Shown: positions 41,233 through 59,207, counted from the first letter of the stretch. The stretch: DNA of 64,000 bases from an uncultured Erysipelotrichaceae bacterium (GCA_902802905.1 CADCNT010000010.1:2393-66392); one strand, 5' to 3'. Notes: a model not told the origin generated them from the sequence alone. Numbers and translations: made by a program.

Positions 41233-41242
41233 AATTAGCACT

Positions 41243-41318: not shown

Positions 41319-41331
41319 AAATAGTGAAAAA

Positions 41332-41414
41332 TGTTGTTGTCTAAAGTCACTTATTCGAAATTGGACAAAACGACTTATCCAGCATAGATTAGGCCTCTTA
41401 TGAGGTCTTTTCTT
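41332..41414 (+). repeat. ~84-bp intergenic element copy 1 (ends in terminator AGGCCTC-loop-GAGGTCT-TTT)
   Basis: Aligns without gaps, except in the terminator loop, to 43885-43968. Partial third copy at 44761-44805. Confidence 0.8.
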
Positions 41415-41433
41415 TGACCTTTATTATTTCTTG

Positions 41434-41465
41434 TGTGACACTTTTGTGACAACCACTGTGATAAT
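41434..41465 (+). promoter_or_regulatory. Regulon motif copy 1
   Basis: TGTGACA-CTTT-TGTGACA-accac-TGTGATAAT upstream of precursors 1-2. Confidence 0.8.
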
Positions 41466-41488
41466 ATAAAATCAACTAAGGAGATATT

Positions 41489-41782
41489 ATGCATATGAAA
41501 CAAGATTTATTAAAAGGTTTAACTAAAGAACAAATCGCAAAAGTTAAAGCATGCAAAAATCATGAAGAACTATTAGCGTTAGCAAAAGAAGAAGGCATTG
41601 AATTAACTGATGAACAACTATCCGCTATTAGTGGTGGTGGTGTCTGTAGTGTTGCTTCAGATGTTGGAGATTTTTTTAATCCATTTGATTGTCCAGAGTG
41701 TGGAAGCAACAAAGTTGAGGCAGTGAAAGGCAAAGGTAATCTATTCCAATGCCAAAGCTGCGGATTTAAATGGAGAGAGTAA
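41489..41782 (+). CDS. Nif11-like double-glycine leader precursor 1 with zinc-ribbon-like core
   Basis: Leader ...ELLALAKEEGIELTDEQLSAISGG; core GVC...CPEC-X16-CQSCGFKW. True start may be ATG 41495. Confidence 0.88.
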   Translation: MHMKQDLLKGLTKEQIAKVKACKNHEELLALAKEEGIELTDEQLSAISGGGVCSVASDVGDFFNPFDCPECGSNKVEAVKGKGNLFQCQSCGFKWRE

Positions 41783-41789
41783 AGATTCC

Positions 41790-42083
41790 ATGAAACAAGA
41801 TTTATTAAAAGGCTTAACTAAAGAACAAATCGCAAAAGTTAAAGCATGTAAAAACCACGATGAGCTTTTAAGCCTTGCTAAAGAAGAAGGCATTGAGCTC
41901 ACTGATGAACAATTACAAGTCGTTAGTGGTGGCGGCGCCTGCAGTGCTATTTCCAGTATTGGCGATAAAATCAATCCATGGGATTGCCCAAGATGCGGTG
42001 CGAACAAACCTGTAAAAGATGGCAGGACCTACACTTGCGAGAAGTGCGGCTACACATGGACAGACAATAGTTCACCAATTTAA
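41790..42083 (+). CDS. Nif11-like leader precursor 2
   Basis: Same leader (...QVVSGG); core GAC...CPRC-X13-CEKCGYTW. Confidence 0.88.
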   Translation: MKQDLLKGLTKEQIAKVKACKNHDELLSLAKEEGIELTDEQLQVVSGGGACSAISSIGDKINPWDCPRCGANKPVKDGRTYTCEKCGYTWTDNSSPI

Positions 42084-42108
42084 TAAAAACGTTAATTATT
42101 CTATCGTG

Positions 42109-42132
42109 ACCGAGTGAAATATCTCGGTTTTT
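42109..42132 (+). terminator. Intrinsic terminator
   Basis: ACCGAG-TGAAATAT-CTCGGT-TTTT. Confidence 0.7.
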
Positions 42133-42255
42133 CTTTTGCTTGCTCGTATTCGAGCCACGTGGCGCGTTTCTTTTATTAATAAAAACTAATTACTATCGGG
42201 TAGAATTAACGTGTTAATAGAGAAAAAAATATGAAAGCAAGATTAATATTTCTTG

Positions 42256-42287
42256 TGTGACACTTTTGTGGCGATTACCGTGATAAC
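42256..42287 (+). promoter_or_regulatory. Regulon motif copy 2
   Basis: TGTGACA-CTTT-TGTGGCG-attac-CGTGATAAC upstream of precursor 3. Confidence 0.75.
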
Positions 42288-42315
42288 ATATTATTATTCA
42301 AGGAGAATATAGCTT

Positions 42316-42603
42316 ATGAAGCAAGATTTATTAAAAGGTTTAACTGACGAACAAATCGCTAAAGTTCAAGCATGTAAAGATCGCGAAGAATTGTTATTAT
42401 TAGCAAAATCTGAAGGGATTGAACTTACCGATGAACAACTAGAAGCTGTTAATGGTGGAGCGTGTTCTAACACAGATAATTGTCCGCCATGTCCATCATG
42501 TCGAAGCACTAATGTTAAATTAAGACAATCTGGCAAGATTTTAAAAAAATACAAGTGTAATGATTGTGGTAAAGAGTTCCAAACAGAATATACAAGCAAA
42601 TAA
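42316..42603 (+). CDS. Nif11-like leader precursor 3
   Basis: Leader ...EAVNGG; core AC...CPPCPSC-X18-CNDCGKEF; RBS AAGGAG. Confidence 0.88.
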   Translation: MKQDLLKGLTDEQIAKVQACKDREELLLLAKSEGIELTDEQLEAVNGGACSNTDNCPPCPSCRSTNVKLRQSGKILKKYKCNDCGKEFQTEYTSK

Positions 42604-42763
42604 ACTAACTGCCTTCAAACTTAATCAATATAAAATAAAAGCCGGGTGTAAAAGTGAACTAGTCGAACAAAAACAAACATATATCGTTAAAGATTTATTG
42701 GAAGCGGAAGGTCTTGTTTAGGAGTTATTTATTTTGCTACAATAAACTCAAAGGGGAATTAAA

Positions 42764-43198
42764 ATGACGTTTAACGAAATTTACAGCACGTACTTAAATT
42801 ATTCACAAGATGAAAAAATCGCACTTGCAAAAGGCGCGACAGTTGAATTGCTTAAGTTTTTCCAAAAAGTTGGCTTGACGGAAGACAATCCTGAATTAGT
42901 TCAATCTTTCTTTCATACATTGCTTTCACTCTTCATTGGTGCAGATGGTAAAATCACCTCTAATGAAGCTGCAATTTATAATGAGATTTTTGGAACAAAC
43001 TATCGTCCATCCGAAATGGTAGGATTTGTTGGTGAAGTTATTAAAGAAACAGATAATTTTATTGACATAGATTCATTTATCGACCAAATGAATCAAGAAC
43101 AAAAAACATTATGCTGCTATATTATTTTAGCGATTATAACAGCTGATGGAAACGTTACCGCTGAAGAATCTGCCGCATTTGAAAGAATCTTAGCTTAA
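42764..43198 (+). CDS. TerB-like protein
   Basis: Two ADG.(I/V)T..E motifs (GADGKITSNE, TADGNVTAEE) in a helical protein. Confidence 0.65.
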   Translation: MTFNEIYSTYLNYSQDEKIALAKGATVELLKFFQKVGLTEDNPELVQSFFHTLLSLFIGADGKITSNEAAIYNEIFGTNYRPSEMVGFVGEVIKETDNFIDIDSFIDQMNQEQKTLCCYIILAIITADGNVTAEESAAFERILA

Positions 43199-43215
43199 TT
43201 TCTAAAGGTAAACAT

Positions 43216-43244
43216 AAGACACTCCTAAAAAATGGGGTGTTTTT
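43216..43244 (+). terminator. Intrinsic terminator
   Basis: AGACACTCC...GGGGTGTTT-TT. Confidence 0.65.
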
Positions 43245-43297
43245 ATTATAGAACATTATCAAATCAATTATGTTAAAATATCAATAAGGGAATAATA

Positions 43298-43876
43298 ATG
43301 GCGAGTGATTTAGGAAAAAGCTATAAGCTTAAAAAGATAAAAATTAATTATCCAAATGGTGATGTTTATGAAGGAATGGGCGCTGCCTATTATAATCCGC
43401 CATATGAACCTCATGGAATAGGTCGATATTATCAAAAGTCTAGTGGAATTACTTTTGAAGCAGACTGGGAGTGGAGAAAGGGACCAGACTTTAAATCGAT
43501 AAGAATAATAAATAAGCCATTAGGAAAATCGTTTGTTATCTTACAGGTTTACGCTGGTGAGATTTATAGCGATTTAGTTCATCTTGATATAATCGAGGCA
43601 AAAGAAGGAGAATACGCCTTTAAAGATTTGCCATCTATCATCTTAGAACCACATAGTTGGTCAAAACATCAATTTGTTATAAAGAAAGTAAGCGACGAAG
43701 AATTGATTTTTGATTTTACCGGTCCGAAAGTGGATCACGGTAATTTTATCAACAAGCGCGCACCTAAGAATGAGCCAAAAGAATATGAATCAACTGTATC
43801 ATCACATATCATTTGGGATCACGATGATGAATATGATGTGAGCCAAACCGCAAAAATCGAACTATTATATTTTTAA
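43298..43876 (+). CDS. Hypothetical protein with an N-terminal MORN-like repeat
   Basis: YPNGDVYEG...PHGIGRYY...GITFEADW. Confidence 0.65.
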   Translation: MASDLGKSYKLKKIKINYPNGDVYEGMGAAYYNPPYEPHGIGRYYQKSSGITFEADWEWRKGPDFKSIRIINKPLGKSFVILQVYAGEIYSDLVHLDIIEAKEGEYAFKDLPSIILEPHSWSKHQFVIKKVSDEELIFDFTGPKVDHGNFINKRAPKNEPKEYESTVSSHIIWDHDDEYDVSQTAKIELLYF

Positions 43877-43884
43877 AAGGTAGC

Positions 43885-43968
43885 TGTCGTCGTCCAAATC
43901 CACTTATCTGGTTTTGCACAAAACGACTTATTCAACATAGATGAGGCCTCCGCGTGAGGTCTTTTCTT
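43885..43968 (+). repeat. ~84-bp intergenic element copy 2
   Basis: Homologous to 41332-41414 (CACTTAT...ACAAAACGACTTAT...CATAGAT.AGGCCTC...GAGGTCTTTTCTT). Confidence 0.8.
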
Positions 43969-43999
43969 GTGGCACATTTGTGACAAATGGTGTGATAAT
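43968..43999 (+). promoter_or_regulatory. Regulon motif copy 3
   Basis: TGTGGCA-CATT-TGTGACA-aatgg-TGTGATAAT upstream of precursor 4. Confidence 0.8.
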
Positions 44000-44026
44000 A
44001 TAAAAATCAACAAGGAGACTTGCGAT

Positions 44027-44323
44027 ATGAAACAAGAATTATTAAAAGGATTAACTGAAGAACAAATTGCTAAAGTCAAGAAATGCAAGAACTACGACGA
44101 ACTATTAGAACTTGCCAAAGCTGAAGGTGTTGAATTAACTGACGAACAATTAAAAATTGTTAGTGGCGGTGGCAAAGACTATTGTCAATCTACACCAAGC
44201 GACCCGTGTATGTATTGCGGATCAAAAGACGTCAAATATAAAAGAGAAACAACTGGTGTCTTATTTGATTACCAATATTGTGGCACATGTAGAACATGCG
44301 GAAGATCCTTTTATATTTTTTAA
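44027..44323 (+). CDS. Nif11-like leader precursor 4
   Basis: Start ATG 44027 after AAGGAG; core GKDYC...CMYC-X23-CRTCGRSF. Confidence 0.88.
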   Translation: MKQELLKGLTEEQIAKVKKCKNYDELLELAKAEGVELTDEQLKIVSGGGKDYCQSTPSDPCMYCGSKDVKYKRETTGVLFDYQYCGTCRTCGRSFYIF

Positions 44324-44368
44324 TTATAAAAGCGTAATAACCAAATACCCCTTTATATTATTAAATTT

Positions 44369-44392
44369 GAAGCCGTTTAAAAGCGGCTTTTT
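44369..44392 (+). terminator. Intrinsic terminator
   Basis: GAAGCCG-TTTAAAAG-CGGCTTT-TT. Confidence 0.7.
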
Positions 44393-44393
44393 G

Positions 44394-44425
44394 TGTGGCA
44401 CATTTGTGACAGATACTGTGATAGC
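44394..44425 (+). promoter_or_regulatory. Regulon motif copy 4
   Basis: TGTGGCA-CATT-TGTGACA-gatac-TGTGATAGC upstream of precursor 5. Confidence 0.8.
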
Positions 44426-44453
44426 ATAGAATTAACAAAGGAGAACTTTGAAA

Positions 44454-44723
44454 ATGAAAGAAGAATTATTAAAAGGTTTAAGCGAAGAACAAATCGCGAA
44501 AGTTAAAAAATGTAAAAGCCAAGATGAATTATTAAAACTCGCTAAAGAGGAAGGCATTGAATTAACTAGTGAGCAAATCGAAGCCGTCAGTGGTGGCGGA
44601 TGTTTCTCAAGCATGAAATGCCCAAATTGTGGTTCAAAAGATTTTAGAAAATTGCCAAATTACCAAATAAGTGGATGTTCAACTTATAAATGTAATGCAT
44701 GCGGTCACGAGTGGTCTTTATAA
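44454..44723 (+). CDS. Nif11-like leader precursor 5
   Basis: Leader ...EAVSGG; core GC...CPNC-X20-CNACGHEW. Confidence 0.88.
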   Translation: MKEELLKGLSEEQIAKVKKCKSQDELLKLAKEEGIELTSEQIEAVSGGGCFSSMKCPNCGSKDFRKLPNYQISGCSTYKCNACGHEWSL

Positions 44724-44781
44724 AATAAACACGATAAGTGAATTAATAAAATACTATCAAAAGATTTATACCGTATAGATT

Positions 44782-44805
44782 AGGCCTTTTCGGAGGCCTT
44801 TTTTT
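44782..44805 (+). terminator. Intrinsic terminator (related to the 84-bp element)
   Basis: AGGCCTT-TTCG-GAGGCCT followed by a T-run. Confidence 0.75.
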
Positions 44806-44836
44806 GTGGCACTTTTGTGACAATACCTATGATAGT
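44805..44836 (+). promoter_or_regulatory. Regulon motif copy 5
   Basis: TGTGGCA-CTTT-TGTGACA-atacc-TATGATAGT upstream of precursors 6-7. Confidence 0.8.
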
Positions 44837-44864
44837 ATATGAATATCAAAGGAGAATTTTGAAA

Positions 44865-45149
44865 ATGAAAGAAGAATTACTTAAAGGTTTAACTGAAGAA
44901 CAAATCGCTAAAGTAAAAGCTTGCAAAAACCAAGATGAATTGTTAGCGTTAGCCAAACAAGAAGGCGTTGAACTCACAGATGAACAATTAGCCGCTGTTT
45001 CCGGTGGTATCTGCACAAGTACACCTACCTTTATCTGCCCAAAATGTGGTTCTGCCAAAATTAAAACTAGATATAATGAAAACTCTATTGCTGAATGGTG
45101 GAATAATACCTGTCAAGATTGTGGATTTGTCTGGATTGTTAATAAATAA
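44865..45149 (+). CDS. Nif11-like leader precursor 6
   Basis: Leader ...AAVSGG; core IC...CPKC-X21-CQDCGFVW. Confidence 0.88.
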   Translation: MKEELLKGLTEEQIAKVKACKNQDELLALAKQEGVELTDEQLAAVSGGICTSTPTFICPKCGSAKIKTRYNENSIAEWWNNTCQDCGFVWIVNK

Positions 45150-45167
45150 TAAAGGAGAATTTTGAAA

Positions 45168-45455
45168 ATGAAAAAAGATTTATTCAAAGGTTTAAGCGAA
45201 GAACAAATCGCTAAAGTAAAAGCTTGTAAAAATAGTGAAGAACTCTTGGCTTTAGCTAAAGCAGAGGGCATTGAACTTACAGATGAACAACTAGCCGCGA
45301 TTAGTGGTGGTGGCGCTTGTAGTGTTGTTTCAGATCTCGGAGATAAAATCAATCCTTTTGATTGCCCATTCTGTGGATATAACGGTAAATTTGATAAAGA
45401 CGGTAATGAAATTACCTGTCCAAAATGTGGAAAAACTTGGAGAGATAACGGTTAA
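45168..45455 (+). CDS. Nif11-like leader precursor 7
   Basis: Leader ...AAISGG; core GAC...CPFC-X14-CPKCGKTW. Confidence 0.88.
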   Translation: MKKDLFKGLSEEQIAKVKACKNSEELLALAKAEGIELTDEQLAAISGGGACSVVSDLGDKINPFDCPFCGYNGKFDKDGNEITCPKCGKTWRDNG

Positions 45456-45515
45456 TATTTAAAGCTTTTTGATATTCGAAAATAAGTTCTCGAATAAAAA
45501 AAGAATAAGCCTCTA

Positions 45516-45545
45516 AAAAGCCGAGTGCAAAATCTCGGTTTTTTT
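45516..45545 (+). terminator. Intrinsic terminator
   Basis: AAAAGCCGAG-TGCAAAAT-CTCGGTTTTTTT, similar to 42109-42132. Confidence 0.75.
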
Positions 45546-45578
45546 GTGGCACTTTTGTGACATAGGTATTGATACAAT
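45545..45578 (+). promoter_or_regulatory. Regulon motif copy 6
   Basis: TGTGGCA-CTTT-TGTGACA-taggt-ATTGATACAAT upstream of the lipase gene. Confidence 0.75.
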
Positions 45579-45620
45579 AATAAGCGAAGGGAAAATAATT
45601 ATTATTTTTAAGAGAGTTAT

Positions 45621-47624
45621 ATGAAAAATTTTGCATTAATGTTCTTCCTCTCATGTGGGCTTGTCACTGGTGTTGCTAGTGGTGGGGCTCCTACTAGAGC
45701 AAATGAAACTTATGAAGTGAATAAGTATTCTTTTTTCTACGCTCCTGATAGTAGATATGAAACTGCACCTCACTTCACCGCCGATATTTATTTTTCCCAA
45801 TCCTATTTTGAACACTCATCCTATGAATATGACACACATTTAGCTACTGCTTCCCTTTGCTTAGCGATGTCCACTTATCCTGACTATACTTCAGCATATG
45901 ATGATGAATGGTATCAAAGCCAACCTAAGTTTATTAAGAATACATTGGAGACTATTGGCTTTAATTCATTTACTACTAATCAAGATTACGTAGAAACTGC
46001 GAGAATGGATTCTATTGGTTTGGCCATTGCTAAAAAAGAATTTAATAATTATACAGTTATTGCTGTGGCACCTAGATCTGGTGGCTATTATAGAGAATGG
46101 GCAAACAATATGCATTTAGGCGATGGCACTAAGTCAGACTATATGCATGAAGGCTGGTATAACGCAGCTAATAAGTTAATTGATTTTGTTATTAATTACG
46201 TTAAAGATAACCAAGTCACTGGACGTGTGAAATTATGGATGACAGGTTATTCTAGAGGCGGAGCAACCGCTAATTTGGCTGCCGGTTTAATTGATGCCCG
46301 TTTAGATAAGGGTGAAAACTTATTAGGTAATCAAGCCAGTTTAACTAGAGAAGATGTCTATGCTTATACATTTGAAGCGCCTCAAGGAGCGAATGTAAAT
46401 TCTAAAACCATTAAACTCCCTAAAGATGCCATTTATGGCAATATCTTTAATGTAATTCATCCTAATGATATCGTTCCTAAAGTTGCGATGGCGGAGTATG
46501 GCTTTACTCGCTTTGGAATTGATAAATTCATTACCACTAAATTTTATGATCCTAGCAATTACGACAGTAATCGCCGTGTCTTTAATAAGTTATTTGATAT
46601 CGTCAATCAAAATGATGAAGTCAAATACAGCGGTGATAATTTTGGAATGTATGGTCTTAAAATTGAAGACTTCTTAAGAATTATTACCGTGATTCCTGCG
46701 ATTGTTGGTTTAATTACTGGTGACCTTGGTCAAGCAAAAGACAAAACTAAGGCCAATTATGACGCCAATATTGCATCAACCTTATTCATTGAAGAAATTA
46801 CCTCAGAACTAGGTTCTAGAGATAACTATGTTAAGAAATATCAACCCTCTTTAGAGAATTTGATGCTTATTATGAAGAACGAACAGTACACTGATATACC
46901 TTCTACTCCAGGTTTAGTGTTAAGAATGTTTATCCTTACTGTTTTATCTAGTTCTCTTTTAGGTAATTTTAATTCGATACAAAAGGCTATTAAGAGTAGC
47001 GTAGGTTCTTATGCGTCTGCAATCGTGGACCTCCTTGATGTTTTAGTTGATCCAATGGTGGATGCATATTGGGAAAGACCAAATGAACTTATCTCTATTG
47101 CAGTGCATATTGGTGATATCTTCCAAAACCATTATGCGGATATCATTCTCGCCCATGTGCAAGCACAAGATAGTTACTATATTGATGACTATAACAAGAA
47201 TAATGAAGAAAAGATTAGTGTTGTTTCTTTTAGAAATAACGCTGATTTTGGAAGAATGAAATTCTTCGGCTTTAATGATTTAGGCTTAAGATTAGAGAGC
47301 AAGAACGGCACTCGTGTTGTTAACGTTGAAGGACATCTTGTTGGCAAGAGCGATATTGAGCAATGCAATAAAGAATATGCGGTTGGCTATTATAGCTATA
47401 TTACCGAAGAGAAGATGGAACTATTTATGCCTATCAATAAGAAATATAACATCTCGATGAAGTCTTATTCTAAAAAGCCACGTCACCGCGTTGAATATTG
47501 GGCTTACTATCAATTCTTTGCTTTAGATAATCGCGGAGTAAAAAGAGCGCAACTAGACCATAAAAAAGACACAGCCTACTTTAACTCTGATCGCTTTAAA
47601 CGCGACGTTAATGTCAAACTATAA
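45621..47624 (+). CDS. Secreted alpha/beta hydrolase, lipase class 3-like
   Basis: Signal peptide; HEGW, WMTGYSRGG (GxSxG), YTFEAP, NVIHPNDIVPKV. Confidence 0.82.
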   Translation: MKNFALMFFLSCGLVTGVASGGAPTRANETYEVNKYSFFYAPDSRYETAPHFTADIYFSQSYFEHSSYEYDTHLATASLCLAMSTYPDYTSAYDDEWYQSQPKFIKNTLETIGFNSFTTNQDYVETARMDSIGLAIAKKEFNNYTVIAVAPRSGGYYREWANNMHLGDGTKSDYMHEGWYNAANKLIDFVINYVKDNQVTGRVKLWMTGYSRGGATANLAAGLIDARLDKGENLLGNQASLTREDVYAYTFEAPQGANVNSKTIKLPKDAIYGNIFNVIHPNDIVPKVAMAEYGFTRFGIDKFITTKFYDPSNYDSNRRVFNKLFDIVNQNDEVKYSGDNFGMYGLKIEDFLRIITVIPAIVGLITGDLGQAKDKTKANYDANIASTLFIEEITSELGSRDNYVKKYQPSLENLMLIMKNEQYTDIPSTPGLVLRMFILTVLSSSLLGNFNSIQKAIKSSVGSYASAIVDLLDVLVDPMVDAYWERPNELISIAVHIGDIFQNHYADIILAHVQAQDSYYIDDYNKNNEEKISVVSFRNNADFGRMKFFGFNDLGLRLESKNGTRVVNVEGHLVGKSDIEQCNKEYAVGYYSYITEEKMELFMPINKKYNISMKSYSKKPRHRVEYWAYYQFFALDNRGVKRAQLDHKKDTAYFNSDRFKRDVNVKL

Positions 47625-47637
47625 GGAGGAAAAGAAG

Positions 47638-48723: not shown

Positions 48724-48734
48724 TTTGTTATCTA

Positions 48735-48764
48735 TTTGGCACTTTTGTGACATTTCATGTGCTT
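48735..48764 (+). promoter_or_regulatory. Regulon motif copy 7 (degenerate, no ORF directly behind it)
   Basis: TTTGGCA-CTTT-TGTGACA-tttca-TGTGCTT. Confidence 0.55.
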
Positions 48765-48805
48765 CAAAGGTAAAATATTGCCAAAGCTTCGTGCGATGGC
48801 GTTTG

Positions 48806-48840
48806 AAAACAGTATCGAAAGCTCGGTACTGTTTTGTTTT
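48806..48840 (+). terminator. Intrinsic terminator
   Basis: AAAACAGTATCGA-AAGC-TCGGTACTGTTTT. Confidence 0.75.
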
Positions 48841-48902
48841 ATAAAGTGGCACACCTATTCTTCTTTTTGAAAGAATGAATGTTTTGATAAAATGAAATTG
48901 TT

Positions 48903-49613: not shown

Positions 49614-49618
49614 AAAAT

Positions 49619-49640
49619 AATCGCCTTATGAGGCGATTTT
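49619..49640. terminator. Bidirectional terminator
   Basis: AATCGCCT-TATG-AGGCGATT-TT between convergent genes. Confidence 0.8.
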
Positions 49641-49651
49641 CTTTTGTTTCT

Positions 49652-50635: not shown

Positions 50636-50702
50636 ATTGCTACCTTAAATTATAACTTAGATTGTTGTGATTATAACCATCAAACATTACAATTAAAAAG
50701 CA

Positions 50703-51446: not shown

Positions 51447-51457
51447 TTAAATTATAT

Positions 51458-51491
51458 TGTGGCACATTTGTGACAATATATGTGATACCAT
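51458..51491 (+). promoter_or_regulatory. Regulon motif copy 8, promoter of the maturation/export operon
   Basis: TGTGGCA-CATT-TGTGACA-atata-TGTGATACCAT, ending 9 nt before ATG 51501. Confidence 0.8.
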
Positions 51492-51500
51492 ATTTTCAAC

Positions 51501-52673
51501 ATGCTAGAAAAAGAAATTCTTACATTGATGTATCAAGATTTTGAAGTTCTTACTTTTGAAGTGGACTACGAAAAAGAAAGAATCAGAATTGTTGAAAAGC
51601 TAGAACATTTCGATAAAGCACCTTATGGCGTAACCGAAGATAGTTTTAAACTGATGAGATTTTTTAACGCTCGCACTATATCCGCACAAAGAAGTGACTA
51701 TGAAGCAATTCTAAAAGCTATGAAATGCAAGAGTGGTTTTGAACTATCTTTTAAAGGACATGGGCTTTCTTTAGCCAATCATTATTGGTTTAAAAGAGAA
51801 GGCGAAAATTTAAAATATGGTGACATTAACTTCTTTACTAATAAGTGGGATGATACATTCGGTAGAGCGGTATTAAGTGGAGACTACGAAGCTTTAAAGA
51901 CATGTGACTTAAATGTTCCTGATATAGTTATCTCTGGTTGGGGCGTTAAGGGGTGGATTTATGATAACGGACCTAAATTATATAAATTAGGAATCCATAA
52001 TGAACATCCAGAAGAAGCAATATGTGAAGTTTTAGCCGCTAAACTCGCTAGTAGATTATTAAGCCCAGAAGAAGTGCTCCAATATGAGCTAAAGACGATT
52101 AACGGGAAGTATGCTTCTGTGTCTAAGCCATTAATCACTGTGGATGAAGAATTAGTACCTCTATCAATTCTTTTACCTCCTGCTTGGTATTTAATGTTTA
52201 AAGAGAAAAACGCAAATAGAGATCTGAGTAAAGAATTCTTTAAGAAAGTTGAAAACTATGACATGCCTGAGTTATATCAATTCTTTGTCAAAGTTTCTTG
52301 CTTACGTACGTTATGCTTTGTCTCTGATTTGCATTTCGATAACCTCTCTGCAATTAGAAATATGAAAACAGGAAAGCTGAAAATGGCGCCTCTATATGAT
52401 TTAGGTGGAGCGTTTGGTTCTTCTGAATCAGGTAAGAGTATGATTACAAACGCCAATAAAGGTACTTTATTAATAATCTATTTTATGTTTGGTGATTTAT
52501 CTCCAGATTGGGATTATTCTTGGTACAAGCCAGAAAAACTAGTTGGAATTGAAGATGAGATTAGAGAATATTTATCAAAGAGTGATTTCTATAACCCTGA
52601 AATTATCGACTGTGTAATTGAGATTTATCATCAACAAAAGAAAACTTTAGATGAAATAGCGAAAAAGATTTAA
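51501..52673 (+). CDS. HipA/CtkA-like Ser/Thr kinase
   Basis: GLSLANHYW, GWGVKGW...LYKLG...EEAICEVLA, catalytic SDLHFDN and APLYDLG. Confidence 0.78.
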   Translation: MLEKEILTLMYQDFEVLTFEVDYEKERIRIVEKLEHFDKAPYGVTEDSFKLMRFFNARTISAQRSDYEAILKAMKCKSGFELSFKGHGLSLANHYWFKREGENLKYGDINFFTNKWDDTFGRAVLSGDYEALKTCDLNVPDIVISGWGVKGWIYDNGPKLYKLGIHNEHPEEAICEVLAAKLASRLLSPEEVLQYELKTINGKYASVSKPLITVDEELVPLSILLPPAWYLMFKEKNANRDLSKEFFKKVENYDMPELYQFFVKVSCLRTLCFVSDLHFDNLSAIRNMKTGKLKMAPLYDLGGAFGSSESGKSMITNANKGTLLIIYFMFGDLSPDWDYSWYKPEKLVGIEDEIREYLSKSDFYNPEIIDCVIEIYHQQKKTLDEIAKKI

Positions 52674-52686
52674 AAGGAGAAAGAGT

Positions 52687-54081
52687 ATGTTTTATCGTTT
52701 AAAAGATAATGTTGCATTAAGAAAGTGGAGATATGTCGACCGTGCGATTTATAGAAAAGGCAGTGAAAACGCAACCGGCATTTCTCAAAAAGAATTTGAT
52801 ATACTTCTTCTTTGTGATGGAAAGCATGATATCGAACCATCTCCATATCTTGCTAATTTATTATCTCAACGGCTTATTGAAGAATGTAAAGAAGGTGATG
52901 AGGCTAATCCCTGGTCACTTTTACATGAATATGATAACTATTACTTCCCAAAGATGAATTTAATGATTACTGGGAAATGTAATCTTAACTGTTTGCACTG
53001 TTTCAATGCGAAAGATAACGCTCCGCTTAATACTGAATTAACTTATGAAGAAGTTTTAAATATTTTGGATCAAGCACGTGATATTGGAGTGCATGCTTTT
53101 ACCATTACAGGTGGGGAGCCGTTAGTTCATCGTCGTTTCTTAGATATTATTAGAGCGATTTATGAAAGGGACATGTTTGTCTTTGAATTGAACACTAATG
53201 GCTTACTTATCACTCAAAAAATGCTTGATGTCTTTAAAGAGTTAAAATGTTACCCATTAATTAAAATTTCTTTTGATGGAGTTGGCTATCATAACTGGAT
53301 GCGACAAAATCCAAGAGCGGAAGATTTAACTGTTAAAGCGATTCAATTATGTATTAAGAATGGCTTTAGAGTGAAAGCACAAGTGCAAGTTAATCGTAAA
53401 AATGTCGACGTGATGTTAGATACCGCCAAACTTCTAAATGAAATGGGTGTTGATGAGATGAGAATTATTAGAACTACTGAAGCACCTAGATGGGAAAAGA
53501 ATTCTCCAGATTCTTCTTTGCCAATTGAAGAGTACTATCAAAGAATGTTGGAGTTCGCTAAAACATATACTCAAAGCGATATGGAAATGACTATTGATAT
53601 CTGGCAACTTATCAGACTATACCCAAGACACAAATCCTATGATTTAGTTCCTATTGCCTGTTCTAAAGATGAATTTAATATCCGTATTCCAATGTGCAAA
53701 GGTAATCGTGGTATGATTGCGGTTTCTTCTAGCGGAGAAGCTGTACCTTGTTTACAGATGTCTGGTTGGTTTATGGAACGCGGAATTAGCTTAGGTAATG
53801 TTCTTAAAACTCCTTTAAAAGAATTAGTAAAAGATAGCCCATATCTTAATTTAGCAATGGCACCTTTGCTTAAGCAAATTTTGGAAAATGATAAATGTGG
53901 TAACTGTAAATACTATAAAGTTTGTGCCGGTGGTTGCCCTGCCTTAGGACTGCTATATTCTAAAAACGGAGACTACTATCATGAAGATATAACGAAATGT
54001 ATTTTCTTTGAAAATGGTTGGTATGATAGAATAGTTCAAGAATTAAACGAATGGCATCTAATTAAAGCATTGGATCTTTAA
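52687..54081 (+). CDS. Radical SAM/SPASM-domain enzyme with an N-terminal RRE-like extension (putative peptide maturase)
   Basis: CNLNCLHC, TGGEP, NTNG, ISFDG; SPASM MCKG...GEAVPC...LGNV...CGNC...CAGGCPA...C; ~85-aa N-terminal extension with ILLLCDG. Confidence 0.92.
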   Translation: MFYRLKDNVALRKWRYVDRAIYRKGSENATGISQKEFDILLLCDGKHDIEPSPYLANLLSQRLIEECKEGDEANPWSLLHEYDNYYFPKMNLMITGKCNLNCLHCFNAKDNAPLNTELTYEEVLNILDQARDIGVHAFTITGGEPLVHRRFLDIIRAIYERDMFVFELNTNGLLITQKMLDVFKELKCYPLIKISFDGVGYHNWMRQNPRAEDLTVKAIQLCIKNGFRVKAQVQVNRKNVDVMLDTAKLLNEMGVDEMRIIRTTEAPRWEKNSPDSSLPIEEYYQRMLEFAKTYTQSDMEMTIDIWQLIRLYPRHKSYDLVPIACSKDEFNIRIPMCKGNRGMIAVSSSGEAVPCLQMSGWFMERGISLGNVLKTPLKELVKDSPYLNLAMAPLLKQILENDKCGNCKYYKVCAGGCPALGLLYSKNGDYYHEDITKCIFFENGWYDRIVQELNEWHLIKALDL

Positions 54082-54093
54082 TGTTAAATTTTT

Positions 54094-54477
54094 ATGAAAA
54101 AGCAAGACGTTCATATTTCTAGCCCAGAAGAATTAAACAAGCACTTACAACATTCTTCACCGGTAACTTGGATAATTTTGTTTGCGACAATCGCAATCCT
54201 TATCGCGTTTTTTGCTTGGTCATTTATCTATAAATTAAAGGTGAAAATTACTGGTACCGCTACTGTTAATAGTGGTGTTGCTACTTTAGTTGTTGATCAA
54301 CAATCTTCTTCGCAATTAAAAGAAGGGCAGACTGTTCATATTTCTAATGCTGAAGGACTCTTATCATATAACGACCAAGACGAACCAATCGTCAGCAATT
54401 TGACGTTAGATGATGGAGAATATTCTTTCTATATCGTCGTAAAAGAAATTAGACCAATTGATTTTGTAATCAAATAA
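54094..54477 (+). CDS. Short NHLP/NHLM-type secretion accessory protein (HlyD-related)
   Basis: ISSPEELN...SP.TW + transmembrane helix at the N-terminus and RPIDFV at the C-terminus match NHLM secretion proteins; no central coiled coil. Confidence 0.75.
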   Translation: MKKQDVHISSPEELNKHLQHSSPVTWIILFATIAILIAFFAWSFIYKLKVKITGTATVNSGVATLVVDQQSSSQLKEGQTVHISNAEGLLSYNDQDEPIVSNLTLDDGEYSFYIVVKEIRPIDFVIK

Positions 54478-54481
54478 AAAG

Positions 54482-56656
54482 ATGAAAAAGAAGAGAATAA
54501 AGAAGCAAGTGACTCATGGAGTAGCCAATACTCCGATTATTATGCAGTTAGAAGCTCTTGAATGTGGAGCTGCTTCTTTAGCAATGGTCATGGCCTATTA
54601 CGGCAAATGGGTACCACTTGAACAAGTCCGTGTTGATTGTGGCGTTTCTCGTAACGGTAGTAATGCGAAAAACATCTTAAGAGCAGCAGAAAAATATGGT
54701 TTCAAAACTAAAGGCTTTGCTTATAACGTTAAGAGACTTAGAGAAAGAGGAAAGTTCCCTGCTATTATCCACTGGGGTGGTGGACACTTTGTTGTTTTAA
54801 ATGGTTTTAGAGGAAACAAAGCAATTCTTAATGACCCTGCAAAAGGTTTAGTGAAAGTTGATTTAAAAACTTTCGATAAAATCTTTACTGGGATTTATCT
54901 TGAAATTACTCCAGATGAGAATTTTGAACCAGGCGGCAAAAGGAAATCTGTTTTCAAATTCGCTAAAAAGAGACTTAGAGGCGCTTTTGCCTTAGTGGCC
55001 TTCTTCTCAATTACGACGATTGTCTTTTATTTATTTACGATTATTAGTCCAGCAGCAAATCAGGTTTTTGTGGACTACCTGTTAGGAGGGAATAATCCGT
55101 CTTGGTTATTGCCGTTTATTTTTATATTTGCCGGTGTTGGCTTGTTGCAAGTCATAGTGACAATAGTTCAATCCTTATATCAGTATAAGATTAGAGGCAA
55201 ATTAGATTTAATTGGTTCATCCACATACATGTGGAGAATCTTACGTTTACCAATCGACTTCTTTTCTCAACGAATGGTTGGAGACTTACAAGCACGTCAA
55301 AGCGAAAACGCGACTATTGCAGAAACATTGGTGAATGTTTTTGCTCCGCTTTTATTTAACACGATTATGATCGTTGTTTATTTAGTAGTCATGTTAAATA
55401 AGAGCTGGATCCTTACCCTTGTTGGTGTTTTTACCATCTTAGTTAACGCATTCGTTTCACGTTATATTTCTAGAGTAAGAGTTAACATCTCTAGAGTTCA
55501 AGCACGTGATAACTCGAGATTAGCTGGTATGACCTCTAAAGGTATTGAAATGATTGAAACCATTAAATCAAATGGCGCAGAAACCTCTTATTTCTCTAGT
55601 TGGCAAGAAGCCGCTGATAGTGTCTATCAACAAAACGTGAAGATGGCAAAAACTAATTCTTTCCTTGGCTTAGTTCCTACCTTCGTTGCCACATTAGCTA
55701 ACTACGCAGTTTTAATTCTTGGTGTCTACTATACAGTTATTGGCCAATTCACTGTTGGTGCTATTTTAGCGTTCCAAGGTTTATTAAGTGCCTTCATGGC
55801 TCCTGCTAACACACTTATCAGTAGTGGCCAAACTTTACAAGAAATGCGTACTTCTATGGAAAGAGTGGATGACGTTTTAGAATATCCTCTTGATCCAAAT
55901 GTTACTCGTGAAATTGAAATGGAACATGTTTCCAAAATTAAAGGTAACTTAATTCTTAAAGATGTAACCTTTGGTTACTCTAGATTAGATAAACCAGTTT
56001 TAACTAACTTCAACTTAGAAATTAAACAAGGTCAAAAAGTGGCGATTGTTGGTACAACCGGTAGTGGTAAGTCCACAATCTCTAAATTAATTTCTGGTTT
56101 ATATTCACCATGGTCAGGTGAAATCATCTTTGATGGTAAAAAGATTGAAGAAATTGACCATGAAATCTTTACTTCATCGATCGCGGTTGTTGACCAAGAC
56201 ATCACCTTATTTGAAGACACAGTCATGAATAACATCAAGATGTGGGATCGTTCCATTGAAGATTACGAAGCCATTATGGCGTGTAATGATGCGCAAATTC
56301 ATAATTCTATTATTTCTAGACAAGGCGGATATAATGCACCTGTGTTAGAAGGTGGTAAGAACTTCTCTGGTGGCGAAAAACAAAGATTAGAGATTGCTCG
56401 TTCCTTAGCGATGGATCCAAGCATTATCATCCTTGATGAAGCCACTAGTGCGCTTGATGCGAAAACTGAATTTGAAGTGGTAAAAGCAATTAAAGCTAGA
56501 GGTATTACCACAATTGTTATCGCTCATAGATTATCAACGATTAGAGACGCTGATTTAATCGTGGTTTTACAAAAAGGAATTATCGTCGAACAAGGAACTC
56601 ATGACGAGTTAATGGCGTTAAAAGGTTCCTATTACGATTTAGTTACAAACGAATAG
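54482..56656 (+). CDS. NHLP-type peptidase-containing ABC transporter (C39 peptidase/permease/ATPase)
   Basis: QLEALECGAASLAM (catalytic Cys), CGVSRNG, IIHW...HFVV, NDPA; GTTGSGKST, FSGGE, ILDEATS. Confidence 0.93.
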   Translation: MKKKRIKKQVTHGVANTPIIMQLEALECGAASLAMVMAYYGKWVPLEQVRVDCGVSRNGSNAKNILRAAEKYGFKTKGFAYNVKRLRERGKFPAIIHWGGGHFVVLNGFRGNKAILNDPAKGLVKVDLKTFDKIFTGIYLEITPDENFEPGGKRKSVFKFAKKRLRGAFALVAFFSITTIVFYLFTIISPAANQVFVDYLLGGNNPSWLLPFIFIFAGVGLLQVIVTIVQSLYQYKIRGKLDLIGSSTYMWRILRLPIDFFSQRMVGDLQARQSENATIAETLVNVFAPLLFNTIMIVVYLVVMLNKSWILTLVGVFTILVNAFVSRYISRVRVNISRVQARDNSRLAGMTSKGIEMIETIKSNGAETSYFSSWQEAADSVYQQNVKMAKTNSFLGLVPTFVATLANYAVLILGVYYTVIGQFTVGAILAFQGLLSAFMAPANTLISSGQTLQEMRTSMERVDDVLEYPLDPNVTREIEMEHVSKIKGNLILKDVTFGYSRLDKPVLTNFNLEIKQGQKVAIVGTTGSGKSTISKLISGLYSPWSGEIIFDGKKIEEIDHEIFTSSIAVVDQDITLFEDTVMNNIKMWDRSIEDYEAIMACNDAQIHNSIISRQGGYNAPVLEGGKNFSGGEKQRLEIARSLAMDPSIIILDEATSALDAKTEFEVVKAIKARGITTIVIAHRLSTIRDADLIVVLQKGIIVEQGTHDELMALKGSYYDLVTNE

Positions 56657-56669
56657 AAAGGAGAAATAG

Positions 56670-58853
56670 ATGGGTTGGTTTGAAGATCAAGTAAGCCAAA
56701 GAAAGAAACTCGATGCGAAAACATTCGAAGATTCTTTTAAGTCGCTTGCAGGCATCCACGTTAAAAACCAAAAGAACCTCTCTGAACAAGAAATCAGAGA
56801 AAACTTTGCTATTTCGCAAATTCTTTCTTATTACCATCATCGTATGGCGGATGTGCCGTCCACAATCAAGACTTTTAAAGATAAACTCAGCTATGTTTTA
56901 GGCCAATACGGCATTGAATATCATAAAGTGGAATTGACTGGTGAATATGTTAATGAGAACAGCTCTCCATTACTTATCTACACCCTTATTGATGAGATTC
57001 CAGTTATCTTATTCCCAACTAAAAACAATCAATATTATTACATCCATTATGGAACTGGTAAAAAGGTCTATATCGATGCGGAATTAATTCACAAATTAGA
57101 AATTGATGCGATTAGTTTCTATCGTCCTCTTCCTTCTGCGAAGATGTCAATTAAGGAATATGCGAAATATTTACGTAAATCCATTAGGCCACTTGATATC
57201 ATCTTATTAGTCCTATTTGCTGCTGCCGCATCTGGTGTTGGCTTATTGGTGCCATATTTCACCAAGATGTTGACTGGTGATGTTGTCCGTAGCCAAAACG
57301 TTAAATTATTCGTCCTTGCATCCATTTATGTTGTAAGCGCCGCAACGGGATTATTGCTTGTTAAGGCAATACAAGGATATATCAACTCGGTTGTTATGAT
57401 GAAAGTACAGAAGTCTGTACAAGAAGCAACGATGATGAGAGTGTTATCCTTACCACCTTCATTCTTCAAAAAATATAATACCGGTGAACTTGCTGCTAGA
57501 TTTGCTAGTGTTAATAGCCTTGCAAACATGATTTTAAGCGGAGTCTTTATGACTTTAGTTTCTGTTATCATGTCACTTTCTTATTTATTCCAACTCATCG
57601 GCTTTGCTCCATCTCTTATCGTTCCTGTGATCTTAATTCTTCTTGTCACTGCTGGATTTAATATTTTTATTTCCCTCTTACAAAAGAAATATACCGCGCA
57701 AAACTTAGAACTCACTTCTAAAGAAGCTGGTGTTACTTATGAAATGATTAACGGTATTCAAAAAATTAGATTAGCAGGTTCAGAAAAAAGAGTGTTTGCT
57801 AAATGGGCAAATGCCTACGCTAAATCTGCAAAAGTTAGATATAATCCACCTCTTATTTTAAGAATTTCAACTGCGATTACTTTACTTATTACTTCTTTAG
57901 GTAATGTGGTTCTCTATTATGTTGCAGCGAAAAACAATATTGACGCTGGTAGCTATATGGCATTTGTCTCTAGCTATGGTGTTCTTTCCGGAGCCTTTAC
58001 TTCATTAACTTCCGTAGTGCAAGTGATTACTTCTCTCCAACCAGTTTACGAGATGGCAAGACCAATCTTAGAGACCGAACCAGAAACCGCTCAAGGCAAA
58101 CTCGTTTTAGAGTCTGTTAAAGGTAATATCAAACTTGAAAACGTCTGCTTCAAATATATTGAAGACGGACCACTTGTGCTTAACAATTTATCCTTAGAAA
58201 TTCATGAAGGTGAATACATCGCAATCGTTGGTCAAACTGGATGTGGCAAATCCACTTTAGTGAGAGTCCTTTTAGGATTTGAAGAACCGTTAAGCGGTAA
58301 AGTTACTGTAGATGGCCATGACATTAATGATGTCGACTTATCTTCACTAAGAAAGAAAATTGGCACTGTTTTACAAAATGGAACTTTGTTCCATGCGGAT
58401 ATTTTATCTAACATCATTATTTCCTGCCCAACTGTTAAAGAAGAAGAAGCTTGGGTGGCTGCAGAAATCGCTAATATCGCTGATGACATTAGAGAAATGC
58501 CTATGGGCATGAAGACAGTTATTTCTGAAGGTCAAGGTGGTATCTCTGGTGGACAAAAACAAAGAATTATGATTGCTAGAGCTATCGTCCATAGACCAAA
58601 GATTTTAATCTTCGATGAAGCCACTAGTGCTCTTGATAACAAGACTCAAAAGAGTATTACTGAGTCGATTAATAAACTTAACTGTACAAGAATCGTTATT
58701 GCTCATAGATTATCCACAATTAAAAATGCTGATAGAATTATCATGCTTGAAGGTGGTAAGATTATCGAAGAAGGCAGTTACGATTCCTTGATTGCCAAGA
58801 AAGGCAAATTTGCTGAACTTGTCGAAAGACAAAGATTAGATAACGATAAATAA
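56670..58853 (+). CDS. Second NHLP-type ABC transporter subunit (permease/ATPase, N-domain lacks the catalytic Cys)
   Basis: MGWFEDQ start, FYRPLP, GQTGCGKST, ISGGQKQR, IFDEATSALD, IAHRLST. Confidence 0.9.
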   Translation: MGWFEDQVSQRKKLDAKTFEDSFKSLAGIHVKNQKNLSEQEIRENFAISQILSYYHHRMADVPSTIKTFKDKLSYVLGQYGIEYHKVELTGEYVNENSSPLLIYTLIDEIPVILFPTKNNQYYYIHYGTGKKVYIDAELIHKLEIDAISFYRPLPSAKMSIKEYAKYLRKSIRPLDIILLVLFAAAASGVGLLVPYFTKMLTGDVVRSQNVKLFVLASIYVVSAATGLLLVKAIQGYINSVVMMKVQKSVQEATMMRVLSLPPSFFKKYNTGELAARFASVNSLANMILSGVFMTLVSVIMSLSYLFQLIGFAPSLIVPVILILLVTAGFNIFISLLQKKYTAQNLELTSKEAGVTYEMINGIQKIRLAGSEKRVFAKWANAYAKSAKVRYNPPLILRISTAITLLITSLGNVVLYYVAAKNNIDAGSYMAFVSSYGVLSGAFTSLTSVVQVITSLQPVYEMARPILETEPETAQGKLVLESVKGNIKLENVCFKYIEDGPLVLNNLSLEIHEGEYIAIVGQTGCGKSTLVRVLLGFEEPLSGKVTVDGHDINDVDLSSLRKKIGTVLQNGTLFHADILSNIIISCPTVKEEEAWVAAEIANIADDIREMPMGMKTVISEGQGGISGGQKQRIMIARAIVHRPKILIFDEATSALDNKTQKSITESINKLNCTRIVIAHRLSTIKNADRIIMLEGGKIIEEGSYDSLIAKKGKFAELVERQRLDNDK

Positions 58854-58865
58854 TTGGAGGCTTTT

Positions 58866-59159
58866 ATGGAACATAAACTAGAAAACGGAGTATTAACATT
58901 ATTTTTCAAAGGAGATCTTAACTCCAGCAATTCTGAACAAATAGAAGAAGAGATTGAAAAAATCTTAGGCGCAAATAAATTCCAAAGTATAGTGCTTGAT
59001 TTTGCAGAATTACGTTATATTTCATCTGCTGGATTAAGAATCATTCTTAAGATTAAAAAAGAACATGATGACACCAAAGTCGTTAAGGTCAATAAAGATG
59101 TTTATGATATCTTTGAAATGGTTGGCTTTAGCAGTGTCATCACCATTGAACGAGCTTAA
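58866..59159 (+). CDS. STAS-domain protein (anti-sigma factor antagonist-like)
   Basis: GDLNS, VLDFAELRYISSAGLR, VYDIFEMVGF; RBS GGAGG before ATG 58866. Confidence 0.88.
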   Translation: MEHKLENGVLTLFFKGDLNSSNSEQIEEEIEKILGANKFQSIVLDFAELRYISSAGLRIILKIKKEHDDTKVVKVNKDVYDIFEMVGFSSVITIERA

Positions 59160-59178: not shown

Positions 59179-59207
59179 AAGTCCAAGAGTTTGCTCTTGG
59201 CTTTTTA
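59179..59207 (+). terminator. Intrinsic terminator ending the export operon
   Basis: CCAAGAG-TTTG-CTCTTGG-CTTTTT. Confidence 0.75.

Follow-up and report, generated by a model that had tools for sequence, protein, structure and literature searches.

The locus described here lies at positions 41434-59159 of a 64,000-nt stretch of DNA from an uncultured Erysipelotrichaceae bacterium (GCA_902802905.1 CADCNT010000010.1:2393-66392), which we call the window. It has two parts: an array of seven small genes for putative leader-bearing peptide precursors, and an operon of six genes for a HipA-fold kinase, a radical S-adenosylmethionine (rSAM) enzyme with a SPASM domain, a short HlyD-like protein (mini-HlyD), an ABC transporter with a C39 peptidase domain (ABC1), a second ABC subunit without one (ABC2) and a STAS protein (Table 1). 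The genome of the window, G000, is a 1.54-Mb assembly with a completeness of 95.5%; C1, C4, C8 and so on are its contigs, and other labels in G or L stand for related genomes or loci. Comparisons were made with 151 genomes of the host's order, with 23 loci carrying rSAM orthologues (66-85% identity) from a scan of species-representative genomes, some of which are the same contigs as G071 and G085, and with 21 loci from a metagenome scan with distant relatives of the kinase (27-34% identity to that of the window). The 23 loci are labelled uncultured Bacilli, Erysipelotrichaceae, Lachnospiraceae and Pseudobutyrivibrio and come mostly from ruminant samples; in naming habitats, shares below 0.2 were left out.

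The seven paralogous precursor open reading frames (ORFs) have 89-98 aa, are 53-71% identical to precursor 1 and share 34 invariant columns when all seven are aligned. Every one has a 48-aa leader ending in ISGG, VSGG or VNGG. The leader end ELTDEQLxA(V/I)(S/N)GG, found in 7/7, agrees with N11P motif 2, ELSDEELEAVAGG, in the part of Haft et al. 2010 (PMC2887384) that we used. Directly after the GG there may be a G, A, V or I, or GKDY in the case of precursor 4; a single Cys follows, then a linker that varies and a pair of CxxC knuckles (CPxCG ... CxxCG-x-x-W/F). In hidden Markov model searches, Nif11 (PF07862) reached 23.7 bits with precursor 1, and 17.4, against a cut-off of 23.8, matching at profile positions 21-46 alone, and the Nif11-like leader model TIGR03798 reached 18.5-22.5 bits in four precursors against a cut-off of 32.3.

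The cores were surveyed in the top 120 database homologues and 22 precursors of related loci, 142 sequences of which 123 could be parsed, a set biased towards close homologues. A Cys stands 0-3 residues from the matched GG in all 123 cores, and the residue after it is Ser or Thr in 104. The two-knuckle pattern of zinc ribbons, CxxC...CxxC, is present in 116 of the 123 and in the seven window cores, with CPxC(G/N/R) in 113 and CxxCGxx(W/F/Y) in 115. Several zinc-ribbon models of Pfam and NCBIfam matched with E between 1e-5 and 1e-2, every one of them under its cut-off (Zn_ribbon_IS1595, 2.2e-4, for precursor 1), and PF08271 is precomputed on many precursor homologues. The window cores, with 40-49 aa, are not of the short, low-complexity, hypervariable kind: six of the seven have orthologues, and mean core identity (64-93%) is near that of the leaders (78-94%), which argues that the cores are under purifying selection as whole domains. 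The family counts 3316 clusters at E<=0.001, named, if at all, hypothetical, 'Nif11 family protein' or 'Zn-ribbon protein', and the clusters found in the ESM Atlas with precursor 1 are all called 'hypothetical protein'.

Of the 14 precursors in G000 as a whole, 13 belong to the zinc-ribbon type, while one, at C1:25151-25342 on a different contig from the window operon, has a core of only 15 aa, CGTNSNNHNHRKIDD. Such short cores carry one Cys each, and their number is about one per operon copy (one in G000, G071 and G085, two in G102). A decayed precursor remnant (MKRVLLKGLTT..., with a stop after 19 codons) lies behind a copy of the promoter motif described below at C8:16809-16930.

The six genes of the operon (51501-59159) are 0-13 nt apart and are followed by a terminator-like hairpin at 59183-59200. 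The rSAM/SPASM enzyme is the sole SPASM protein in G000. Sixteen orthologues all keep the Cys of its CX3CX2C motif (C98, C102, C105) and seven C-terminal Cys (C337, C355, C404, C407, C413, C417, C438). Its nearest solved relatives are SuiB and SkfB, which mature peptides made on ribosomes and modified after translation (RiPPs), both by sequence (E 3e-9 and 3e-8) and by Foldseek comparison of the model (3e-14 and 7e-14; TMq 0.60-0.64 over about 485 columns at 14-18% identity). Models of sactipeptide and ranthipeptide maturases stayed under their cut-offs (StsB 80.8 vs 625, PapB 69.1 vs 340, WgkB 80.8 vs 650 bits). The enzyme model has an alpha/beta domain of about 88 aa ahead of the TIM-barrel core. 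Its residues 1-67 form three strands followed by helix-strand-helix-strand, at pLDDT 77-93, and the Foldseek alignment is with SuiB, which bears an RRE; the predicted domain is consistent with a peptide-recognition (RRE-like) domain. A complex prediction of the enzyme with three 4Fe-4S clusters, S-adenosylmethionine and a precursor gave no answer (0.03 against a mark of 0.32) and is neutral on binding. Lanthipeptide or YcaO chemistry was considered and rejected, since a search of the whole G000 assembly returned zero LanC-like and zero YcaO genes.

The kinase is a divergent member of its fold. Pfam HipA_C matches it at E 0.007 (16.4 bits, gathering threshold 30.5) and matches 25 of 42 aligned members of the kinase family at E<=0.001; a profile of these 42 relatives finds CtkA in the PDB at 1.7e-18. 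The AlphaFold2 model (pLDDT 94.8) has HipA structures as its top Foldseek matches (E 3e-10, TM 0.56-0.60). The residues K150, D276, N281 and D300 are invariant, and from HipA we take the roles represented among them to be catalytic Asp, Asn, Mg-binding Asp and ATP-binding Lys. No HipB-type helix-turn-helix antitoxin gene adjoins the kinase gene, which is preceded by a PHP-domain gene and followed by the rSAM gene. A paralogue at C11:49474-50889 (25-27% identity) was set aside as outside the system, as it sits among ribosomal-protein genes.

On the export side, the NHLP export models are the ones that ABC1 and ABC2 match best, yet all three exporter proteins miss the equivalog cut-offs. The adjacent set of a C39-ABC gene, a peptidase-less ABC gene and an HlyD-like gene is complete, and its order is kept in 18/23 related loci. 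Mini-HlyD, one transmembrane helix with a short domain, has 127-157 aa across the related loci; being short in all of them, it is not a broken gene. Proteins that could partner the STAS protein, with PP2C and HATPase_c_2 domains, are encoded elsewhere in G000, at C1:23283-25130 and at C1:~94.5 kb.

Much of this had been anticipated in a preliminary description of the window, drawn up from the sequence alone. The seven precursors with their 48-aa leaders ending in (V/I)(S/N)GG were confirmed by alignment, ORF by ORF and leader end by leader end; domain searches agreed with the composition of the six-gene operon gene by gene; and the stated lack of YcaO and LanM/LanC genes in the window holds across the 95.5%-complete assembly. 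Domains and leader anatomy likewise favour the proposed combination of leader peptide, GG cleavage and C39/ABC export with an rSAM/SPASM enzyme resembling RiPP maturases. The names given to the system need more care. Nearest families, leader-end motif and export gene set speak for 'Nif11' and 'NHLP-type', but every curated model, of leader or exporter, fell below its cut-off, and judged by sequence these are nearest-family labels.

Table 1. Features of the precursor array, the operon and their surroundings, with positions in the window.
Feature	Positions	Strand	Evidence and remarks
tRNA-Ala(CGC)	41243-41318	+	ARAGORN; immediately 5' of the array
Promoter motif 1, for precursors 1 and 2	41434-41475	+	TGTGACA direct repeats, 11-bp spacing, then TGTGATAATAT extended -10
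Precursor 1, 95 aa	41495-41782 (alternative ATG 41489)	+	Leader 1-48 ends ISGG; core GVCS...CPECG...CQSCG
Precursor 2, 97 aa	41790-42083	+	Begins 7 nt past precursor 1; terminator 42108-42129
Precursor 3, 95 aa	42316-42603	+	Own promoter motif 42256-42273
TerB-like protein gene	42764-43198	+	Pfam TerB 1.9e-5; between precursors 3 and 4
192-aa protein gene	43298-43876	+	No family match; between precursors 3 and 4
Precursor 4, 98 aa	44027-44323	+	Own promoter motif 43968-43985
Precursor 5, 89 aa	44454-44723	+	Own promoter motif 44394-44411
Precursor 6, 94 aa	44865-45149	+	Own promoter motif 44805-44822
Precursor 7, 95 aa	45168-45455	+	Begins 18 nt past precursor 6; without own motif
Secreted Lipase_3 protein	45621-47624	+	Behind the same motif at 45545-45562
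Lipoprotein-like protein, 370 aa	47611-48723	+	Follows the Lipase_3 gene
Operon promoter	51458-51499	+	Same heptamer-repeat motif and TGTGATACCATAT
HipA/CtkA-fold Ser/Thr kinase, 390 aa	51501-52673	+	Profile, model, Foldseek
rSAM/SPASM enzyme, 464 aa	52687-54081	+	Radical_SAM PF04055 1.8e-20; SPASM PF13186 3.3e-6
Mini-HlyD, 127 aa	54094-54477	+	TIGR03794 33.1 bits vs 156.2, positions 2-67 of 421; one transmembrane helix and short domain
ABC1 (C39 peptidase/permease/ATPase), 724 aa	54482-56656	+	Peptidase_C39 1.8e-32; TIGR03796 840.2 bits vs 853.3
ABC2 (permease/ATPase without C39), 727 aa	56670-58853	+	TIGR03797 653.7 bits vs 709.4
STAS protein, single domain, anti-sigma-antagonist type, 101 aa	58854-59159	+	STAS 1.3e-14; TIGR00377 59.6 bits vs 53.45 (above cut-off)

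Array and operon are tied by a promoter motif. The 18-nt sequence TGTGRCACWTTTGTGRCR has eight sites in the window, whereas 100 shuffles lead one to expect 0.03; every site is on the + strand: at 41434, 42256, 43968, 44394 and 44805 for precursors, at 45545 for the lipase, at 48735 (one mismatch) and at 51458 for the operon. It is made of TGTGRCA heptamers at 11-bp spacing, the final heptamer being 8 bp 5' of a GATAAT-type -10 box; this geometry presumably fits activators of the OmpR/SARP type. The claim that the same motif precedes both parts is borne out by these counts, except that the motif is missing in front of precursors 2 and 7, which lie 7 and 18 nt behind precursors 1 and 6. That the motif links precursors and operon also stands in so far as they share a promoter, but it is not private to them. 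With at most two mismatches there are 22 sites in G000, and they precede nine precursor units, the decayed remnant, the operon, a unit of STAS, PP2C and short-precursor genes, the lipase gene and several large lipoprotein, secreted or membrane-protein genes. The sites include C1:22916, C4:49207, C6:9432, C12:41936, C12:35665 and C19:5369, several of them at large lipoprotein or secreted-protein genes (681, 932, 749 and 1083 aa). With such genes behind the motif, the precursors are part of a wider surface and secretome regulon, and the Lipase_3 and 370-aa genes of the window are members of this regulon rather than peptide machinery; a homologue of the 370-aa protein adjoins a precursor and a kinase gene in G102. 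No homologues of the TerB-like and 192-aa genes were seen in the related loci examined.

Regulation can be followed further in G000 and its relatives. At C1:22984-25342, one motif copy is followed by a STAS gene, the gene of a 615-aa membrane protein with SpoIIE-type PP2C phosphatase and anti-sigma-type HATPase_c_2 domains, and the short precursor. In 11 Bacilli loci, one of them in the genome of another family, the motif is kept upstream of the genes for kinase, short precursor and precursors; L037 has three heptamers in tandem. It was not found in the Lachnospiraceae loci of the related set, where operons (L042:11577-14521, L049, L044) carry HAMP-PP2C, STAS, an ECF-type sigma factor (168 aa) and an anti-sigma kinase (140 aa) between the rSAM and exporter genes. 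In L035 and L037 the gene directly 5' of the system encodes a response regulator, and an orthologue with 65% identity to it in G000 (C8:26382-27134) overlaps the gene of a PF06580-type histidine kinase (C8:25117-27134 for the pair). Orthologues with at least 67% identity occur in 8/151 genomes of the order, including all five with precursors, a co-occurrence that overstates the support because related genomes are non-independent samples. Two other explanations of the motif were discarded. A sigma-54 promoter (TGGCAC-N5-TGACA) is at variance with the lack of any Sigma54_DBD match in G000, with the wrong -12 element and with the conserved extended -10 after the motif. As for a dedicated alternative sigma factor, the single Sigma70_r2 match in G000 is RpoD, and the weak TIGR02937 matches, including a SigH-like 204-aa protein beside an rlmB-like gene, are not linked to the system. 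A generic scan for sigma-70 promoters gave no enrichment (73 found, 73.1 expected).

The association of these parts extends beyond the window. In the host's order, precursors occur in 5/151 genomes, of which four have the kinase (54-100% identity) and the same four the rSAM gene. Synteny in related genomes, which the preliminary description had proposed to look for, was seen: in 18 of the 23 loci rSAM, mini-HlyD, both ABC genes and STAS stay together. Counted singly, ABC1 is found with the rSAM gene in 18 of these loci, a STAS gene is found in 18 and a precursor in 13. A short-core precursor (61-76 aa) directly adjoins the rSAM gene in eight of them; precursors thus lie beside the enzyme in these eight loci and in G071 and G102, though not in the window. 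One of the metagenome loci, L066, has three zinc-ribbon precursors placed between its rSAM and exporter genes. The kinase is found in 7/23 rSAM loci, plus one distant copy, and is mostly missing from those of Lachnospiraceae. Among the 21 metagenome loci with distant kinases, 12 have a precursor with a Nif11-like leader next to the kinase, whose short, Trp/Cys/Ser-rich cores are quite unlike those of the window; some of these contigs have about 60% G+C, and others show the order kinase, rSAM, mini-HlyD, ABC1. From this pairing, which is the strongest evidence and comes from gene order, we conclude that the kinase belongs with the peptides. Two earlier proposals must be qualified in the light of these data. 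As to one enzyme set serving a library of Cys-rich cores, precursors and operon are linked by the shared promoter, by co-occurrence and by embedded precursors, but the cores are conserved between species and not hypervariable. The kinase as a part of the system is favoured by its distant relatives beside Nif11-like precursors; yet it is missing beside many rSAM genes and is hence optional, not essential.

Several loci deserve mention in their own right. Distant kinases are paired with precursors in L058-L063, L076 and L077 (for instance ...AGG followed by AWYNCMNETW), and L058 also has a small radical-SAM activase-like gene. L021 (G102:C6:2780-4761) has a second kinase copy, flanked on its upstream side by a zinc-ribbon precursor and on its downstream side by a short precursor of 62 aa, and no rSAM gene on this stretch. 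Directly 5' of Lachnospiraceae rSAM/STAS genes, at L042:9667-9924 and L044:8812-9042, are ORFs of 76-85 aa with the leader end ...ELxMISAAG and short acidic/basic cores free of Cys, which may be a second type of precursor. In L037:4-8510 and L028:4-3926, large NRPS-like (adenylation/condensation-type) and MATE-like genes lie directly 5' of the STAS, regulator, precursor and rSAM genes. L040 is a contig binned with the metagenome-assembled genome of a Methanomethylophilaceae archaeon and holds a precursor, rSAM (72% identical), ABC1, ABC2 and STAS; mis-binning is more likely here than transfer to an archaeon.

What might such a system do? We read it as a self-contained system of peptide maturation and export of the NHLP/Nif11 type, with a probability of about 0.6. 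Array and operon would be co-expressed from the TGTGRCA promoters, probably bound by the co-occurring OmpR-like response regulator, and the linked partner switch of STAS, PP2C and anti-sigma-type kinase would lie inside the same regulon. Before export, the sole rSAM/SPASM enzyme would act on the core, the likeliest target being the conserved Cys that stands 1-4 residues past the GG; a thioether-type cross-link at this Cys is our tentative suggestion for the specific chemistry, held at somewhat less than even odds. The HipA-fold kinase would most likely phosphorylate Ser or Thr of the peptide, namely the neighbour of that Cys. The C39 domain of ABC1, whose activity is assigned from its families, would cut the precursors after GG, and ABC1, ABC2 and the membrane-anchored mini-HlyD would export the cores. 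The short hydrophilic core, one per operon, would be the operon's cognate product and is a candidate signal; the zinc-ribbon mini-proteins (Cys4, about 45 aa), many per genome, are candidate effectors. The overall logic would be like that of a pheromone-plus-bacteriocin regulon. Since the operon's most constant partner is the short-core precursor, which lies elsewhere in G000, we only infer modification of the zinc-ribbon cores.

A number of observations weigh against this scheme. Its case is built from family membership and gene association. No NCBIfam rSAM equivalog comes near its cut-off (the best, AhbD, has 109 bits vs 500), the enzyme model has a mean pLDDT of only 74, low around the cluster-binding loops, and the putative RRE draws on overall fold similarity. 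Cores so highly conserved and fold-like would be uncommon targets of cross-linking, and the Cys-free cores beside Lachnospiraceae rSAM genes disfavour Cys as a universal target of the enzyme. The kinase gene is missing beside the rSAM gene in L028, L037, L038 and most Lachnospiraceae loci. The C-terminal half of the regulator aligns with OmpR/PhoB-family structures up to residue ~199, and Pfam shows its receiver domain alone. Finally, G079 has six precursors and an ABC1 gene (82% identical), and neither rSAM nor kinase was found in it. Precursors that routinely do without the operon had been named at the outset as grounds for abandoning the proposal; four of the five order genomes with precursors have both enzymes, and the G079 contig is broken off exactly at the start of ABC1, so that the missing genes may be unassembled.

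The main alternative concerns the substrates. The rSAM enzyme, with the kinase where there is one, could modify the short-core signal peptide alone, while the zinc-ribbon proteins would be unmodified GG-leader cargo sharing leader, exporter and regulon. Short-core precursors adjoin the rSAM gene in 8/23 loci and number about one for each operon copy, the zinc-ribbon cores are domains of conserved, fold-like character, and the leader end resembles that of unmodified class II bacteriocins, to go by the portion of Haft et al. 2010 (PMC2887384) drawn on here. Yet the Cys after the GG is kept in both classes of core (123/123), the leader to which an RRE-type enzyme would bind is the same in both, L066 has its three zinc-ribbon precursors embedded between enzyme and exporter, and the window operon is without a short precursor of its own. 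We regard this division of labour as unlikely, if a serious contender. One could also suppose that the Cys of the cores are not metal ligands at all but donors for several rSAM-made thioethers, in the manner of sactipeptides or ranthipeptides (cf. SCIFF). This would suit the five or six Cys per ~45 residues, the thioether-forming SkfB among the nearest solved relatives of the enzyme and its weak matches to the StsB, PapB and WgkB maturases, but these matches amount to 69-81 bits where 340-650 are called for, the knuckle signatures (113/123 and 115/123) are those of zinc ribbons, several zinc-ribbon models match, all below cut-off, with PF08271 precomputed on many homologues, and the short cores have one Cys only. 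Multiple thioethers look decidedly improbable.

The kinase raises a question of its own. It adjoins no HipB-like gene, and 27-34%-identical kinases adjoin Nif11-like precursors in 12/21 loci, several without rSAM or STAS on the contig; both facts sit badly with a growth-arresting, toxin-type kinase, or a regulator (for example of STAS), that merely rides in the operon. It is true that the characterised members of the HipA family are toxin or secreted kinases, judging by the titles of the PDB matches, that phospho-signalling parts (STAS, STAS-APH, PP2C-HATPase) abound in the operon and its relatives, and that the kinase is dispensable in many loci. On balance we find such a role improbable. Returning to the maturation and export system, one might speculate on a broader picture, which as a whole we consider unlikely at present: a horizontally shared signalling and effector system of ruminant-gut Firmicutes, in which an rSAM-modified, possibly phosphorylated short peptide would be exported, sensed through a two-component and/or STAS-PP2C pathway, and would switch on a regulon of zinc-ribbon mini-proteins and surface proteins. 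The kinase would then be the first of the HipA family dedicated to ribosomal peptide precursors, and the mini-proteins the first exported zinc-ribbon 'RiPP-leader' proteins.

The surroundings and samples of the array offer some further observations. A Phd/YefM antitoxin and ParE toxin pair (Pfam 1.1e-8 and 1.9e-11) lies at 40457-41015, directly 5' of the tRNA gene and the array. The ~80-nt 3' flank of this tRNA-Ala gene, with a terminator hairpin (41243-41414), is recopied ahead of precursors 4 and 6, at 43885-43967 and 44759-44805 (68-79% identity). Growth of the array by duplication of units including the tRNA-distal flank is one possibility, location at an integration site another. Contigs from DNA runs (X5, X9; window 41200-46000) show joints, e.g. 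41782->44865 and 41414->44417; they fuse precursor 1 to precursor 6 or 7 and skip ~3 kb between promoter copies. This suggests other cassette orders in related strains, although at 90% likeness other organisms are a possible source. In a bovine-gut RNA library, 66 contigs match the array with at least 90% identity (4 at >=99%, 8 at 95-99% and 54 at 90-95%) and reach precursor genes; one match, over 45190-45329, differs at 2 of 140 positions. They are a weak hint of precursor transcription, as they come mostly from relatives and may include DNA carry-over. The library contigs do not cover 42649-43614 and 45547-46000, which, with contigs alone to go by, is uninformative.

If the proposed steps are true, the HipA kinase fold would join the enzymes that act on leader-bearing ribosomal peptides, the Nif11/GG leader would carry small folded metal-binding domains besides short modified peptides, and peptide export would be tied to partner-switching signalling in uncultured, genome-reduced gut bacteria. 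That 14 genes and ~22 promoters are devoted to the system in a 1.5-Mb genome, and that its machinery is 66-85% identical across two bacterial classes, argues that it plays an important part in rumen ecology. With its seven small genes and 7.7-kb operon, it is also compact enough to be within reach of heterologous expression.

The claim that no characterised RiPP class combines these parts agrees with our own search: in the literature covered, which left out ~1.7 million PubMed Central articles, most subscription-journal papers and all supplementary files, no paper on this gene combination was found. Partner enzymes and cargo are unlike any described class found in this literature. The closest is the NHLP/N11P system with its trio TIGR03794/03796/03797, whose N11P precursors have, in the sections of Haft et al. 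2010 (PMC2887384) that we consulted, hypervariable Cys/Ser/Gly-rich short cores, the leader ...ELxxEQLxAVxGG and scattered paralogous families. Long conserved GG leaders, large scattered paralogous families and a three-gene export set are common to both. In contrast, the models score below cut-off here, the HlyD partner is cut to 127 aa and the cores are conserved and zinc-ribbon-like; instead of cyanobacteria and the like, Bacilli and Lachnospiraceae of the ruminant gut are the hosts, and the enzymes are an rSAM/SPASM protein and a HipA-fold kinase, not a cyclodehydratase or LanM. Prochlorosins, in which one enzyme serves many Nif11-leader cores according to the abstract of PMC10783134, share with our system the many precursors with a Nif11-type leader and the presence in the genome of just one candidate for the modifying enzyme, but here there is no LanM/LanC and the cores are conserved between species.

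Among enzymes, SuiB (the streptide maturase), SkfB and other RRE-containing rSAM/SPASM maturases have the same succession of N-terminal domain, rSAM core and SPASM, and they are the best matches in sequence and fold. The differences are a low identity (14-18%), the lack of an NCBIfam equivalog match and orthologues that are unusually conserved, at 66-85% across Bacilli and Lachnospiraceae. The kinase resembles the HipA toxin kinase and CtkA of Helicobacter pylori in fold and catalytic residues, whereas it has no HipB partner, its constant neighbour is a leader-peptide gene and the HipA_C match is only at E 0.007. In organization, the system recalls the Blp/Com regulons of streptococci, where a short signal peptide and several effector peptides have in common a GG leader, a single C39 ABC exporter, a direct-repeat promoter and two-component control. 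Here too a short peptide and several larger ones share GG leader, C39 exporter and direct-repeat promoter. Yet there are an rSAM enzyme and a kinase in addition, no test run shows the regulator to be LytTR-like, and the putative effector cores are zinc-ribbon-like; a STAS/PP2C partner switch is linked to the whole, joined in the Lachnospiraceae versions by an ECF sigma factor.

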